Origin: Candidatus Aenigmatarchaeota archaeon
GTDB taxonomy: Archaea > Aenigmatarchaeota > Aenigmatarchaeia > Aenigmatarchaeales > JACQIB01
Assembly: GCA_038999215.1 (NCBI GenBank)
Contig: JAWABM010000001.1
Location: forward strand, 15,349 to 62,972
Reading direction: 5' to 3'
DNA: 47,624 nucleotides
Numbering within the stretch: the stretch's first letter is position 1; each line of letters opens with the position of its first letter. Below, in pieces: positions 5,906 to 9,756 of this stretch. The position numbers and the translations under genes are program-made. Below the pieces are notes generated by a model that searched no databases, was not told the origin of the DNA, and saw only the letters and a list, made by a program, of their open reading frames with translations.

Positions 5906-7258
5906 ATGGTGGCGAAGAAGGCTTCTGAGGACAAGAGGAGAAAGGTGATAATCATGGGAGCCGCAGGGCGCGACTTCCACAACTTCAACATGGTTTACCG
6001 AGGCGACAGAAAGTACAATGTCGTCGCTTTCACGGGCGCGCAGATAGAAGGCATAACAGGAAGGAGATATCCGCCAGAGCTTGCTGGAAAGCTCTATCCC
6101 GACGGCATACCGATATACCCCGAGAGCAGGCTGGCCGAGCTCATAAGGAGGGAAAAGGTGGACGAGGTCGTGCTCGCATATTCGGACCTTAAGTATGATA
6201 CCGTTGGCCATAAGCTCTCGACTGCGCTGGCTGCGGGCGCGGACTTCAGGCTGCTCGGCCCCAAGAGCACGATGCTCGAGAGCACGAAACCGGTTATAGC
6301 CGTCTGCGCCGTGCGGACCGGGTCGGGCAAGAGCCCGTTCTCGCGGAAGATAATTGACATAATCAAAGGCATCAACGTCAATGCAAGGGCGGTGGTCATA
6401 AGGCACCCGATGCCGTACGGGAAGCTGGCAAAGCAGGCGGTGCAGCGCTTCGCCAGGATGGAGGACCTCGACGCGCAGGACTGCACCATAGAGGAGCGCG
6501 AGGAGTACGAACCTCACATAGACAGGGGGACCGTAGTTTACGCCGGCGTTGATTACGAGAAGATACTGAGGAGCGCAGAGAAGGAGGCCGACATAATAAT
6601 CTGGGACGGAGGCAACAACGACTTCCCGTTCATAAGGCCGGACCTGATGATAACGATAGCCGACGCGAAGAGGCCCGGGGACGAGATAGGGTCCTACCCC
6701 GGGGAGGCTAACCTCAGGATGGCCGATGTCGTGATAGTCAACAAGGTAGGGAACTCGAACCCGCTCGACGTCGAGCGCGTTGTTGAGAACTCGCAGCTCG
6801 CGAACCCGAAGGCGACAGTGATAAAGGGCGACCTTATAATCAGCATAAACAAGCCCGACATGCTCAGGGGCAAGAGGGCGATAATAGTCGAGGACGGCCC
6901 GACCCTGACTCACGGCGGGCTTTCGGTAGGCGCTGGCACGATAGCGGCCAACTCGCACGGCGCGTACGCCGTGAACCCCCGTCAGTTCGCGGTGGGCTCG
7001 ATAAAGGAGGTATACGAGGACTTCCCGCACCTCGGCGCAGTCCTTCCGGCGATGGGCTATTCCGACAGGCAGATATCTGAGCTGGAGCAGACAATAAACA
7101 ACACGCCTGCGGACGTGGTCGTGATAGGCACGCCCACGAACCTGGAGAAGTACATGAAGCTCAACAAGCCTGCCGTGCACGTGTCGTACGACGCGCAGAC
7201 ATTGAGCAAGCCGAGCCTATACGATATAATCTCGGATTTCCTGAAAAGGAAGCGCTAA
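5906..7258 (+). CDS. COG2403-type P-loop protein (predicted GTPase / cyclic 2,3-diphosphoglycerate synthetase-like)
   Basis: VIIMGAAGRDFHNFN N-terminus, Walker A AVRTGSGKS, IIWDGGNNDFPF and length of ~450 aa match the cDPG-synthetase-like/COG2403 family as I recall it. The track start 5858 is TTG. ATG 5906 is preceded by GGGGGT (SD-like). Confidence 0.55.
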   Translation: MVAKKASEDKRRKVIIMGAAGRDFHNFNMVYRGDRKYNVVAFTGAQIEGITGRRYPPELAGKLYPDGIPIYPESRLAELIRREKVDEVVLAYSDLKYDTVGHKLSTALAAGADFRLLGPKSTMLESTKPVIAVCAVRTGSGKSPFSRKIIDIIKGINVNARAVVIRHPMPYGKLAKQAVQRFARMEDLDAQDCTIEEREEYEPHIDRGTVVYAGVDYEKILRSAEKEADIIIWDGGNNDFPFIRPDLMITIADAKRPGDEIGSYPGEANLRMADVVIVNKVGNSNPLDVERVVENSQLANPKATVIKGDLIISINKPDMLRGKRAIIVEDGPTLTHGGLSVGAGTIAANSHGAYAVNPRQFAVGSIKEVYEDFPHLGAVLPAMGYSDRQISELEQTINNTPADVVVIGTPTNLEKYMKLNKPAVHVSYDAQTLSKPSLYDIISDFLKRKR

Positions 7259-9756
7259 GGCATCCTTATCCCGACGAGCTTTGATTCGCCCTCTTCTATA
7301 GAGACGCCGTAGACGGAATCGGCGGCGCTTATCGTGGCGTCGTTGTGGCTGATGACTATGAACTGCGCCAGCTCGGAGTTCTTCTTAAGGAAGCCGGATA
7401 TCTTGTAGGTGTTTAGCTTGTCCAAAGCCGCATCTATCTCGTCAAGCACGTAGAAGGGCGCCGGCCTGATGTTCTGTATCGCAAATATGAACGCGAGCGC
7501 CGTGAGCGTCTTCTCGCCTCCTGACATCGAGTCGATGTTAAGCACTTTCCTTCCTGGCGGGCTGGCCTCTATCATCAGGCCGGCCTCCTCGAGGACCTCT
7601 CCCTCGAGCCTGAGCGAGCCCTCCCCTCCGACGAGGTCGTTGAATATGACCTTGAACTGGCCAGCGACCGCATTGAGCGTCTTCATGAAGGTGTCCCGCC
7701 TGCGCTTCTCGACCTCGGCTATTATCTCAAGCACCTTCAGCCTTTCGCTGGAAAGCATGTCCACCTTGGCCTTGAGGTCGTCATAGACCTCCTTGACCTG
7801 CTTGAACTCCTCGACCGCTTTCTGGTTTATCGGGCCGAGGGCCGATATCTTCGTGAGCATGTCCCTTATCTTCGCCTGCATCGTGCTGACGGCCAGGTCG
7901 TAGAGCTCCCCCTCCGGGACCTTTTTGGTTTCGGCAAACTCCTGCCTTATGTTCTCCAGCTCGGCCTCGAGCCTGGCGCGGTTTATTTTGAGCCTGTTCA
8001 GCTCCTCCTGCGAAGACAGCTTCTTCTCGTTTATTTCCTTCCTCTTCTCCCTCAGCTCGGCCAGCTGCCGCTCGGTCTTCTGCCTCTTCTCGTAGGCGTC
8101 CCTGAGCTCCTCGGAGCCCTCCTTCTCCTTGCTGAGCAGCTTCTCCAGCTCGGCCTTCAGTTTCTCCACTTCAACAAATATCAGCCTGCTCTCCTCCTCT
8201 ATGCCCTTTATCTGCTGCTCGTACCTCTTTATCTCGCCGGACTGCGTGAAGGCGGGCGAGTCCTTCCTGTAGAATCCGCCGACGACTGCGCCGCCGCGCT
8301 CCACAAGGTCGCCGTCCAACGTGACCATCCTGGCCGCGCCGAACCCTATCCTCCTGGCTGTCTCTATGCTGTCGACGATGAGCGTGTCGCCGAACACGTG
8401 CGAGAAGGCATGCCAGTATTTCTTGTCGAACTGTATGAGATTGATAGCGAAATCTATGGCGCCCTTTTCCTTGAGGAGCTTCTTCAAGTGCGCATTGTCG
8501 CGCTCACTGACCTTGTCCAAGGGCAAGAACGTGGCCCTGCCTATCTTGTTGTCCTTGAGGTGCTTCACGCACTCCACGACAGTGTCAGAGTCAGCGACGA
8601 CGATGTCCTGCATGTGCGGGCCGGCGGCAACCTCTATCGCGACATCATACTTCGGAGGGACCTTGCAGAGCGAACTTATCGTGCCGTAAACTGCCGGCTT
8701 GTTCAGCCTGAGCACCTCCTGCACGGCCCTGCTCATCGATTGCTGCCTCTGCTTCTCCTCTATCGCGATCAGCTTCTGTACCATCTCCCTGTACCTGTCT
8801 GCGGCAAGGCGGTTGCTCTCTATCTTGGCCTCGCGGTTGGATATCTGGGCGCGCAGCTGCTCCATGCTCTTGATTATCTCCATGTCCTTTGTCCTGTCGA
8901 AGAGCCTCTGGCTTATGTTCCTTATCTCGACCTCGTCCCTGTCCAGCTGGGCCTCTATCTTCTCGGCCTCCTTGGAAAACTTCTCAAAGTCCTTCTCCCT
9001 CTCAATTATGCCCTTGTCCAGCTTTTTCATGGCCTCCTCCGCGTCGGCCAGCCTCTTCACCCCGACCGATGCGCGGAGCCTGTCGAGCTCCTTCGCGTAC
9101 TTCTCGTACTCCTCAGCGGCGGCCTTTTCGGCCTTGAGCTTTCCCATCTGCGATTCCTTCTCATTAAGTATTATCAAGGACTCCTTCAGCCTCTCCTCGA
9201 CTGTCCCGAGCTCGCTGAGCGCCTTTGCCCTCTTCTCCTCGAATTCCGAGATGCCTGATATCTCATCTATGACGCCCCTTCTCTCCACGGGGTTCATTTC
9301 TATGACCTCGGTGACGTCGCCTTGCAGTATTATGTTGTGGCCATCGGGATGAATGTTCGCAGCGCGCAGCACCTCGAGGACCTTCTCTCGCGTGACGGTC
9401 TTGCCGTTCAGCTTGTAGATGGAGACGCCGTTCCTGTTGACCTTCCTCGATATCGCGACCTGGTCCTCCTCAAGCGGGAAGACCCTGCCTGCGTTGTCGA
9501 ACGTGATGCGCACGGCGGCGAAGTCCGCAGGCTTCTTGCCCTCCCCGCCATTGAATATCATGCCGAGCATCTTCTTGGCCCTGAGGCTTTTGGCCGACGT
9601 GCGGCCGAGCACGAAGCAGAGCGCGTCCAGGACGTTCGATTTGCCTGAGCCGTTGGGGCCGCAGATGACGGAAAAGTTGCTGGGGAACAGTATGGTGGTC
9701 TTCTTCGCGAACGACTTGAAGCCCTGCATCTCCATCTTGGTTATCCTTGTGTTCAT
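7255..9756 (-). CDS. smc: SMC chromosome segregation ATPase, unusually short (833 aa)
   Basis: Walker A FSVICGPNGSGKSN. The hinge has YGTISSLCKVPPKYDVAIEVAAGPHMQDIVV...IGRATFLPLDKV...GGAVVGG. Signature motif LSGGEKTLTALAFIFA and Walker B FYVLDEIDAALD are present. scpA/scpB lie nearby. Confidence 0.9.
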   Translation of the reverse strand: MNTRITKMEMQGFKSFAKKTTILFPSNFSVICGPNGSGKSNVLDALCFVLGRTSAKSLRAKKMLGMIFNGGEGKKPADFAAVRITFDNAGRVFPLEEDQVAISRKVNRNGVSIYKLNGKTVTREKVLEVLRAANIHPDGHNIILQGDVTEVIEMNPVERRGVIDEISGISEFEEKRAKALSELGTVEERLKESLIILNEKESQMGKLKAEKAAAEEYEKYAKELDRLRASVGVKRLADAEEAMKKLDKGIIEREKDFEKFSKEAEKIEAQLDRDEVEIRNISQRLFDRTKDMEIIKSMEQLRAQISNREAKIESNRLAADRYREMVQKLIAIEEKQRQQSMSRAVQEVLRLNKPAVYGTISSLCKVPPKYDVAIEVAAGPHMQDIVVADSDTVVECVKHLKDNKIGRATFLPLDKVSERDNAHLKKLLKEKGAIDFAINLIQFDKKYWHAFSHVFGDTLIVDSIETARRIGFGAARMVTLDGDLVERGGAVVGGFYRKDSPAFTQSGEIKRYEQQIKGIEEESRLIFVEVEKLKAELEKLLSKEKEGSEELRDAYEKRQKTERQLAELREKRKEINEKKLSSQEELNRLKINRARLEAELENIRQEFAETKKVPEGELYDLAVSTMQAKIRDMLTKISALGPINQKAVEEFKQVKEVYDDLKAKVDMLSSERLKVLEIIAEVEKRRRDTFMKTLNAVAGQFKVIFNDLVGGEGSLRLEGEVLEEAGLMIEASPPGRKVLNIDSMSGGEKTLTALAFIFAIQNIRPAPFYVLDEIDAALDKLNTYKISGFLKKNSELAQFIVISHNDATISAADSVYGVSIEEGESKLVGIRMP

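Follow-up and report, generated by a model that had tools for sequence, protein, structure and literature searches.

A probable Smc subunit with half-length arms

The window analysed here, a stretch of 47,624 nucleotides from a contig of a Candidatus Aenigmatarchaeota archaeon, carries an smc gene. Its product is most probably (we put the probability at about 0.78) the genuine Smc component of an archaeal Smc-ScpAB complex, with a coiled-coil arm of about half the canonical length (Table 1). In Pfam the SMC_N family covers residues 5–823 of the 833-aa product, and SMC_hinge lies within the predicted hinge. The NCBIfam model TIGR02169 (SMC_prok_A) scores 746.8 bits, narrowly above its cut-off of 729.4, and matches in three stretches, the first of which places residues 5–337 on profile positions 2–336 of 1165. 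The top matches in a PDB search were heads and hinges of Pyrococcus Smc (E = 1.6e-109 for the heads), and Foldseek returned SMC chains, Smc5/6 chains among them. Eukaryotic Smc5/6 and bacterial RecN share with this protein an SMC-type head and shorter coiled coils; the best family match of the present protein is prokaryotic Smc and not Smc5/6.

Other members of the superfamily were considered and rejected. Rad50 models score the protein at 50–69 bits against cut-offs of 700–1087, and a hinge domain is present rather than the zinc hook of Rad50/SbcC. The scores for ASRP (75.7 against 300), arcadin-4 (Rkd4; 33.2 against 860) and RecN (43.9 bits against 407.85), a protein without a hinge, are likewise far below the NCBIfam cut-offs.

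An earlier note on this DNA had described all globular parts as intact, and Pfam, the PDB matches and the AF2 secondary structure agree, with neither head nor hinge truncated. The head contains Walker A (GPNGSGKS, 33–40), the Q-loop (QGD, 145–147), Walker B (LDEID, 771–775) and the H-loop (HND, 804–806), and the hinge glycines read GGAVVGG (488–494). The signature motif, which had been given as LSGGEKT, was wrong in its first letter and reads MSGGEKT (744–750). The ABC-type head motifs, neck, joint and hinge glycines are those of canonical Smc-ScpAB (Bacillus subtilis, Pyrococcus furiosus, P. yayanosii; TIGR02169/TIGR02168), in which genes for the ScpA kleisin and the ScpB kite subunit likewise accompany smc.

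The assignment of these two partners is upheld by Pfam and NCBIfam, although the NCBIfam ScpA models match the scpA product below their own cut-offs; binding of the partners to the short Smc is predicted. The scpB and scpA genes overlap by 29 nt. The smc-scpA-scpB cluster also occurs in L001 and in Ca. Nanohalobium constans, and the order AspRS...smc-scpA-scpB-RqcH is common to the window and Ca. Nanohalobium constans. The neighbouring RqcH/NFACT gene in the window is truncated.

Table 1. Features of the smc gene and its partner genes, with positions in the window.
Feature	Residues	Position	Strand	Evidence or remarks
smc, half-arm SMC	833 aa	7255..9756	(-)	ATG start; SMC_N + SMC_hinge; TIGR02169
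N-terminal half of ATPase head	1-168	9253..9756	(-)	Walker A, Q-loop; hhalign to canonical SMC gapless, confidence 9
N-terminal arm strand	169-340 (172 aa)	8737..9252	(-)	AF2 helices 169-285, 290-340
N-strand discontinuity, LFDRTKD	283-290	8887..8910	(-)	pLDDT <50; helix break 286-289
Hinge dimerisation domain	341-506	8239..8736	(-)	PF06470 354-470, 114.9 bits; PDB hinges 3nwc, 4rsj, 1gxl
C-terminal arm strand	507-709 (203 aa)	7630..8238	(-)	AF2 helices 507-542, 551-610, 623-640, 647-709
C-strand partner discontinuity, KEKEGSEELRDA	543-554	8095..8130	(-)	pLDDT <50; helix break 543-550
C-strand joint region, LGPIN 640-644	611-646	7819..7926	(-)	helix breaks 611-622, 641-646
C-terminal half of ATPase head	710-833	7258..7629	(-)	signature motif, Walker B, HND
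scpA (kleisin)	243 aa	5068..5799	(-)	PF02616, 53 bits, cut-off 24.6
scpB (kite subunit)	186 aa	4536..5096	(-)	PF04079, 131.6 bits; TIGR00281, 114.3 bits, cut-off 89.2

Arm length and the missing segment

The arm boundaries were taken from the secondary structure of an AF2 monomer model (pTM 0.49), in which helices 169–340 and 507–709 form the two strands expected of an SMC protein and are predicted to pair as an antiparallel coiled coil. The heptad score of the N strand is 0.93, compared with 0.70 +/- 0.04 in shuffled arms. The C strand measures 183 aa when the head is set to begin at residue 690, as in the earlier note. Measured between the same HMM anchors, canonical SMC relatives have N strands of 336–347 aa and C strands of 364–378 aa, so that the roughly half-length arms proposed before are confirmed by the 172 and 203 aa found here. 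The typical Smc arm of ~340 aa (~47–50 nm) is therefore not matched, a length that is typical of the family and not strictly defining for it. With ~0.148 nm per residue, the 172 aa of the N strand would correspond to an estimated ~25 nm, roughly half of the ~50 nm of the canonical arm.

To locate the missing part, the protein was aligned with canonical SMCs. In the global hhalign alignment, residues 1–326 correspond to canonical 1–326 without a gap, so that N-strand residues 169–326 are colinear with the same canonical positions, and residues 541–709 are colinear with the end portion of the canonical C strand. In total, 172 aa are lacking from the N strand, at canonical 327–506, and 170 aa from the C strand, where the gaps lie within canonical 677–881. 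Both strands thus lost matching amounts, a point that the earlier note had wanted checked. The confidence of this alignment is only 0.9–2.7 for residues 321–340 and 501–560, where the coiled coil is of low complexity, and it is weak near the junction. Independent segment HMMs gave matching distances from the head: for segment 290–340 the median in canonical N strands is 144 aa, compared with 147 aa here, and for segment 551–610 the values are 131 aa in canonical SMCs and 129.5 aa here.

The same correspondence was found for the local features of the arm. Canonical SMCs have a spot enriched in proline and glycine at ~288, which matches the N-strand discontinuity, where R288 is nearly invariant, and a peak of these residues at 547 in the family alignment coincides with the discontinuity of the C strand. 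The joint region aligns to 5xei, a head-plus-joint structure, and its segment HMM matched all 92 of 92 canonical SMCs at an equal distance from the head. As judged from these alignments, positional homology with canonical Smc extends over the head, neck, joint and, in each arm strand, the first ~155–160 residues, and includes the discontinuity at N~286/C~547; the hinge-proximal half of the canonical arm, ~170 aa on each strand, is absent. The missing stretch extends from the hinge to approximately mid-arm, where the elbow of canonical Smc is predicted. The antiparallel register would be kept, because both strands lack nearly equal amounts.

Distribution of the short form

We found the short form in more than 200 protein clusters, about 110 from Aenigmarchaeota (797–857 aa) and about 110 from Nanohaloarchaeota (827–876 aa), plus one Undinarchaeota sequence; the sequences carry names such as Aenigmarchaeota, Nanohaloarchaea and Naiadarchaeales. 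No full-length form appeared in this survey of orthologues, in which the clusters are ~800–876 aa long. Among 120 close relatives (50–82% identity), the same HMM anchors gave N strands of 169.5 +/- 1.9 aa and C strands of 200.3 +/- 2.2 aa, and 27 short representatives clustered at 50%, down to 34–35% identity, have mean arms of 173–193 aa. The arms of Aenigmarchaeota and Nanohaloarchaeota align almost without gaps, and indels beyond single-residue gaps fall at the shared N/C discontinuity. The comparison indicates that Aenigmarchaeota and Nanohaloarchaeota normally carry the short form, which occurs also in at least one Undinarchaeota member, and that arm length is under tight purifying selection.

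The short form is also present in the closed genomes of Ca. Nanohalobium constans, Nanohalococcus occultus and Nanosalina VS9-1. These nanohaloarchaeal genomes measure 0.95–1.1 Mb, in line with the earlier suggestion of a very small chromosome; against it, the arms are ~323 aa in a Micrarchaeota MAG and ~255 aa in MAGs labelled Bacilli/Tenericutes, so that this link is only loose.

Relation to known arm-length classes

Bürmann et al. (2017, PMC5344682) describe natural Smc arm lengths as multimodal, with modes at 238, 341 and 515 aa and "possibly" at 163 and 423 aa, report that Smc function tracks a 91-aa period of arm length, and give 272 aa as the mode for Smc5/6; "naturally occurring short variants" are also mentioned by Bürmann et al. 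(2018, bioRxiv 10.1101/464701). Since natural short-arm Smc classes had already been reported, the finding is less novel than the earlier note assumed, and short Smc variants are known in outline from these two sources. Their available text names neither the organisms behind the 163-aa mode nor the missing part of the arm. What seems to be new here is the association with DPANN archaea and the exact anatomy of the short arm.

Bacillus-type SMCs have a mean arm of 357 aa on our scale and 344 aa on the published one, an offset of ~13 aa. The mean arms of 187.5 aa (this protein) and 184.9 aa (its clade) therefore convert, approximately, to ~172–175 aa on the 2017 scale, within ~10 aa of the tentative 163-aa minor mode (PMC5344682). 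Compared with the 341-aa mode, this is shorter by roughly two periods of 91 aa; the loss of ~170 aa is no whole multiple of the period, at 1.87 for a period of 91 aa and 1.7 for one of 99 aa. Because of this proximity to the minor mode and the approximate two-period step, the angular relation between head and hinge, which is thought to underlie the periodic rule, is plausibly preserved. Archaeal relatives form further arm classes of ~320–328 and 337 aa that lie off a simple 91-aa ladder, and the ~255-aa arms of the Bacilli/Tenericutes-labelled MAGs, found in SMCs of 976–990 aa, represent the 238-aa mode.

The engineered Mini-Smc proteins of B. subtilis (PMC5344682) have the same design, with the hinge and a short hinge-proximal stretch set on a shortened head-proximal arm, and their arm length is likewise discrete and tightly constrained. 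The half-arm SMC differs in being natural and lineage-wide. On the published scale its arms of ~172–175 aa are shorter than the 253–267 aa window, which contains the shortest functional construct described in the available part of that truncation screen.

Alternative explanations

A collapse of the coiled-coil region during metagenome assembly, with a real gene of ~1,170 aa, would be conceivable since coiled-coil DNA is compositionally repetitive, and the single run found (a hot-spring metagenome) has a depth of only ~2–5x, with parts of the gene left uncovered by Logan contigs. At this low depth, the read check proposed in the earlier note found neither an indel nor a joint inside smc in the source-run contigs. 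The same length recurs in more than 200 independent clusters from many assemblies (NCBI, JGI, ENA, Logan), closed genomes included, with a standard deviation of arm length of ~2 aa over 120 relatives, and a matched loss on both strands is unexpected of a random collapse; we regard an artefact as having a practically negligible probability. It is also very improbable that the gene is a degenerating, non-functional remnant, as might be supposed from the reduced genomes of DPANN archaea and the truncation of the adjacent RqcH/NFACT gene, because the catalytic motifs and hinge glycines are all intact, 97 columns are invariant over 70 sequences (51–82% identity), arm length is strictly conserved, and scpA and scpB are kept beside smc in three lineages.

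A functionally diverged SMC deserves more weight, although we consider it rather unlikely. Such a protein would be a DNA clamp or bridge or a repair factor and not a processive loop extruder, with condensin activity lost or provided by another protein. This would fit the lack of an upper arm and elbow, the shortness of the arms compared with the shortest B. subtilis truncation described as functional, the barely sufficient TIGR02169 score, and the report that Mini-Smc proteins of improper arm length retain ATP hydrolysis but do not move away from their loading sites (PMC5344682). However, the Smc equivalog is the best NCBIfam match while ASRP, Rad50 and arcadin-4 remain far under their cut-offs, conservation extends to the neck, joint, hinge and ScpAB partners, and the length is close to one of the natural modes of bona fide Smc (PMC5344682). 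A separate question is whether short arms arose once in a common ancestor or several times in DPANN lineages, in convergence with the miniaturisation of cells and genomes. In a neighbour-joining tree of head and hinge (410 columns), 28 short representatives formed three clusters and one singleton and were not monophyletic (0/96 bootstraps), and shortening took place independently in other lineages, such as the Bacilli/Tenericutes-labelled MAGs. The deep nodes of this tree are very short, however, and the method is crude; moreover, the nearly gap-free arms of Aenigmarchaeota and Nanohaloarchaeota, where most indels fall at one shared discontinuity, the gene order from AspRS to RqcH common to both, and the Micrarchaeota MAG, a small genome without half arms, speak against repeated origin, which we find doubtful.

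Proposed mode of action and implications

As a genuine Smc subunit, the protein would dimerise through its hinge, ScpA would link one head at its neck to the other at its cap, and ScpB would bind ScpA. Head engagement driven by ATP would open the short rod and lead to DNA capture and translocation. An Smc compartment of about half the usual size would result, and with it a correspondingly shorter reach in each cycle.

A bolder reading, which we hold to be less likely than not, is that the half-arm Smc is a derived character common to Aenigmarchaeota, Nanohaloarchaeota and at least part of the Undinarchaeota as a subgroup of DPANN; it may have arisen once by an excision of the whole upper arm, from about the elbow to the hinge, and may work as a non-folding rod of ~25 nm with about half the capture reach. 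Models of arm length could usefully be tested on this natural half-arm SMC. If a single excision and a working half-arm rod are correct, the upper arm and the central elbow would be dispensable for Smc-ScpAB in nature, and arm length could shrink together with very small cells and chromosomes.

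Identity and architecture of the short Smc

The smc ORF (7255-9756, minus strand) begins with ATG and encodes 833 aa. Its product, the query in our searches, matches Pfam SMC_N over residues 5-823 and the canonical SMC_hinge over residues 354-470 (114.9 bits), and scores 746.8 bits against TIGR02169, the NCBIfam equivalog of archaeal-type Smc, exceeding the cut-off of 729.4; the first matched stretch places residues 5-337 on profile positions 2-336 of 1165. The closest solved structures are constructs of the head, joint and hinge of Smc from Pyrococcus (5xei, E = 1.6e-109; 4rsj; 3nwc), and the top Foldseek matches of the AlphaFold2 (AF2) model were all SMC-family chains. 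This model was generated from a 70-sequence alignment and has a mean pLDDT of 81 and a pTM of 0.49. A crude heptad score was 0.93 in both arms, against 0.70 +/- 0.04 for shuffled arm sequence and about 0.6 for globular domains. Walker A (GPNGSGKS, 33-40), the hinge glycines (GGAVVGG, 488-494) and Walker B (LDEID, 771-775) lie in the regions that an earlier note gave for them, as does the signature motif (744-750), which reads MSGGEKT instead of LSGGEKT. Pfam and NCBIfam also bore out the identities of ScpA (5068-5799) and ScpB (4536-5096).

Arm length

Arm spacers were measured in each homologue between HMMs of the N-head (residues 1-168), the hinge (341-506) and the C-head (710-833). With the same anchors in all proteins, the arms of the query are roughly half the canonical length, as had been estimated from the sequence. 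The arm of Bacillus subtilis Smc is 344 aa in the published measure (PMC5344682). Since the Bacillus-type mean is 357 aa on our HMM-anchor scale, the offset is approximately +13 aa, which puts the query at about 172-175 aa on the published scale. A coiled coil rises about 0.148 nm per residue, and 172 aa would therefore give an arm of about 25 nm. For the canonical Smc arm, 47-49 nm has been reported.

Arm spacers, modelled elements and arm segments of the short Smc, with SMC-like proteins of CPR bacteria
Feature	Coordinates	Observation	Basis
Query arm		N strand 172 aa; C strand 203 aa; mean 187.5 aa	HMM anchors
Canonical relatives, arm		N strand 336-347 aa; C strand 364-378 aa; mean ~350-360 aa	HMM anchors
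Bacillus and Priestia Smc, arm		N strand 336 aa; C strand 378 aa; mean 357 aa	HMM anchors
N-strand helices	aa 169-285, 290-340		AF2 model
Hinge fold	aa 343-506		AF2 model
C-strand helices	aa 507-542, 551-610, 623-640, 647-709		AF2 model
C-terminal head	after aa 709		AF2 model
Neck	query 169-230	equal distance from head in 92/92 canonical SMCs	segment HMM
Joint region	query 611-709	equal distance from head in 92/92 canonical SMCs	segment HMM
Segment adjoining query hinge	query 290-340	N strand in 66/92, median 144 aa from head (query 147 aa)	segment HMM
C-strand segment	query 551-610	C strand in 76/92, median 131 aa from head (query 129.5 aa)	segment HMM
CPR SMC-like proteins	L060:3559-5883, L061:4998-7199, L073:4995-7277, L084		genome scan

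The hinge-proximal half of the arm

To locate the missing segments, the short family was aligned globally, profile to profile, with 45 canonical representatives, numbered here as in the homologue P0144. On the N strand, query residues 1-326 align gap-free with canonical 1-326 (confidence maximal to about 280 and moderate to 320), and gaps totalling 172 aa take out canonical 327-506, just ahead of the hinge. Past the hinge, the C-strand gaps total 170 aa within canonical 677-881, after which query 541-833 falls on canonical 882-1174. The exact end-points of the deletions are uncertain, since the alignment is poorly supported over some 20-40 residues to either side of the hinge. As an independent check, HMMs of single query arm segments were searched against 92 canonical sequences (see table). 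Their placement agrees with the profile alignment that the retained arm is the head-proximal half; by these comparisons, the hinge-proximal half is missing from both strands in matched amounts, and the alignment to canonical SMC thus answers in the affirmative whether both arms lost matching segments.

The deletion begins about 160 aa from the head, close to the midpoint of an arm of 340 aa. It is there that Smc proteins are predicted to have a central discontinuity, the 'elbow' (bioRxiv 10.1101/464701), and we infer its position relative to the deletion from the description 'centre of the arm'. PDB sequence searches with the arm only (residues ~199-345 and ~505-651) gave chance coiled-coil matches and no solved arm fragment on which the elbow could be placed, and in a scan of P/G frequency for a central elbow along the canonical alignment only the joint and a discontinuity at about 288 were prominent. 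The latter is a P/G-enriched spot in canonical SMCs, and at the matching N-strand position the short family retains a discontinuity (283-290, LFDRTKD, with R288 nearly invariant; 543-554 on the C strand).

Distribution, conservation and origin

The short smc is neither an assembly artefact nor a relic. Among 5.8 billion proteins searched, about 110 clusters had 50-82% identity; they measure 797-857 aa, except for those of about 1,300-1,390 aa with intein domains, and the names, where present, are mostly Aenigmarchaeota. In the 120 closest relatives (50-82% identity) the N strand measures 169.5 +/- 1.9 aa and the C strand 200.3 +/- 2.2 aa, and the 97 invariant columns in an alignment of 70 sequences include all catalytic residues. 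Contigs of the source run, a hot-spring metagenome, are 95-100% identical to smc (mostly 99% or above) and show neither an indel nor a joint within it, which speaks against an assembly collapse; this read check draws on the one run that contains the sequence, as low-depth Logan contigs, and is weak alone. When 1.84 billion representatives were searched exhaustively with HMMER, 27 short ones emerged, down to 34-35% identity and with mean arms of 173-193 aa, followed by a few SMCs with arms of 242-253 aa and then the canonical bulk. The distant short representatives bear labels such as Aenigmarchaeota, Nanohaloarchaea, a Naiadarchaeales archaeon (phylum Undinarchaeota) and one 'Heimdallarchaeota'. 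In a second homology search, seeded with a nanohaloarchaeal Smc, every Nanohaloarchaeota relative among the matches listed was of the short form, the full-length non-intein proteins of this phylum having 827-876 aa.

Many short-SMC orthologues reach 1,300-1,400 aa because the P-loop of Walker A is interrupted, directly after GSGKS, by an intein of about 540 aa that bears a LAGLIDADG homing endonuclease (PF14528, PF14890). The carriers are of Aenigmarchaeota type (homologues P0003, P0010, P0028, P0061, P0070, P0073, P0120, P0121, P0123, P0131 and P0133) or from Nanohaloarchaea (P0359, P0361, P0370 and P0380), and P0129 and P0250 show smaller insertions at the same site. The smc of the window has no intein at this site (aa ~38-39, nt ~9640-9645).

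The Smc profiles of Aenigmarchaeota and Nanohaloarchaeota align nearly gap-free through both arms. Single-residue gaps aside, the only arm indels are of 7 and 4 aa and fall at the common discontinuity, a pattern that favours a common short ancestor of the two. A neighbour-joining tree of head plus hinge recovered the short class as one clade in 0 of 96 bootstraps, with very short deep branches, and is compatible with one origin or several. Relationships within DPANN may be traceable with the short arm as a simple molecular marker. The earlier suggestion that half-length arms go with a very small chromosome received only loose support: the short form occurs in the closed or near-closed genomes of Ca. 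Nanohalobium constans (973 kb), Ca. Nanohalococcus occultus (~0.95 Mb), Ca. Nanosalina VS9-1 (1.05 Mb) and SG9 (1.13 Mb), but arms are about 323 aa in a Micrarchaeota MAG and about 255 aa in MAGs labelled Bacilli/Tenericutes, indicating that small genome size alone is no predictor of half arms.

Gene neighbourhood

In the window, smc and scpA-scpB are separated by a single opposite-strand gene (5858-7258), scpB is followed by an RqcH/NFACT gene, and AspRS is found upstream of smc. The closed genome of Ca. Nanohalobium constans has AspRS ... smc (848 aa) - scpA - scpB - NFACT, so the gene order is common to two phyla. On a 620-kb contig of a 57%-identical relative, smc (832 aa) overlaps scpA, which is followed by scpB.

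The intervening plus-strand gene encodes 466 aa and has, at its end, a 4-nt overlap with the smc stop codon; it is absent at the smc-scpA junction in Ca. Nanohalobium constans and in L001, the locus of a related smc used for comparison. Its product has no Pfam or NCBIfam match; among PDB sequences it weakly resembles cyclic 2,3-diphosphoglycerate synthetase (9sxb, E = 3e-6, residues 235-348) and may be a distant homologue of this thermoprotectant-synthesis enzyme in a hot-spring organism. One Logan contig of the source run skips 119 nt within the gene (6919-7039), a length that would shift its reading frame; the skip may reflect variation in the population or an artefact of the contig. On the other side, a 101-aa winged-helix (MarR/ArsR-like) gene (9753-10058, minus strand) ends 4 nt inside the smc start, and this ATGA overlap suggests translational coupling. 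As a conserved smc partner it was ruled out by its absence upstream of smc in Ca. Nanohalobium constans and in L001, where ribosomal protein S9 lies upstream of smc.

The RqcH/NFACT protein of the window (3491-4666, minus strand) has 391 aa, compared with 629 aa in Ca. Nanohalobium constans. It covers only positions 1-362 of 645 in the archaeal RqcH model (290.7 bits, cut-off 400), the C-terminal half including NFACT-R being missing or displaced, and a plus-strand ORF (2993-3502) abuts its 3' end with a 12-nt overlap. Further along (14696-29022 and 34128-36770) are large ORFs of up to 1,588 aa whose only domains are Ig-like, PQQ/beta-propeller-like or beta-helix/NosD and which look like secreted or surface proteins; several other ORFs in these runs (554, 635 and 580 aa) have no family match.

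Other unusual SMC proteins

A genome scan derived from the short-class alignment, with generic Walker A/B peptides as search patterns, returned 80 mostly bacterial loci, which served only as canonical references and as a source of side observations. Among them, CPR bacteria (Saccharibacteria, Azambacteria) encode proteins of 734-775 aa whose SMC_N-type heads match the query head strongly. Neither Pfam nor the query-derived hinge HMM detected an SMC hinge in them, and these proteins (730-775 aa) were dropped as still shorter SMCs because, with no detectable hinge, they are not comparable. They may represent an SMC-like protein reduced even further, or one that dimerises through another domain, in other ultra-small organisms. 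SMC heads are also present in proteins of Candidatus Iainarchaeum sp. (L024:4603-7593, 997 aa) and Leptospira interrogans (L083:4974-7745, 924 aa), neither with a Pfam SMC_hinge match at E <= 0.001, which suggests further unusual short SMC architectures outside the short-arm clade.

Proposed function and the arm-length rule

The short Smc is most likely a working subunit of Smc-ScpAB. All parts of the ring (ATPase head, neck, joint, dimerising hinge, kleisin and kite) are present, the neck would offer the binding place of the ScpA N-terminus, and the complex would function with an Smc compartment and a reach of about half the usual size.

According to PMC5344682, B. subtilis Smc is functional at discrete arm lengths alone, the main period being 91 aa, proteins with mis-sized arms still hydrolyse ATP without leaving their loading sites, and natural prokaryotic arms are multimodal, with modes at 238, 341 and 515 aa and 'possibly' at 163 and 423 aa. 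At ~172-175 aa on the scale of that study, the DPANN Smc comes near the tentative 163-aa mode and falls some two periods short of 341 aa. The loss of about 170 aa is no exact multiple of 91 or 99 aa, and other archaeal arm classes, of about 320-328 and 337 aa on the HMM-anchor scale, blur a simple length ladder. The short Smc resembles the engineered Mini-Smc of that study in carrying the hinge on a shortened head-proximal arm, here as a natural protein. The shortest functional B. subtilis construct described there lies in a window of 253-267 aa.

Natural short Smc variants are already known to specialists, as indicated by PMC5344682 and bioRxiv 10.1101/464701. Our literature searches found no paper linking a half-arm Smc to Aenigmarchaeota, Nanohaloarchaeota or DPANN, and none describing which half of the arm a short Smc lacks. 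Models of DNA loop extrusion have few quantitative parameters, and SMC arm length is one of them. It bears on reach or step size, on how large the Smc compartment is and on hinge-head communication. The rule of discrete lengths rests so far mainly on engineered B. subtilis proteins. The short family is large and natural, with intact heads, joint, hinge and ScpAB and an arm made of the lower half only, held within about 2 aa across deep divergence and present in organisms whose genomes are closed, Ca. Nanohalobium constans among them. We regard the short DPANN Smc as a moderately interesting natural test case, rich in sequences, for the need for the upper arm and elbow, for the scaling of step size with arm length, and for the periodic length rule two periods down.
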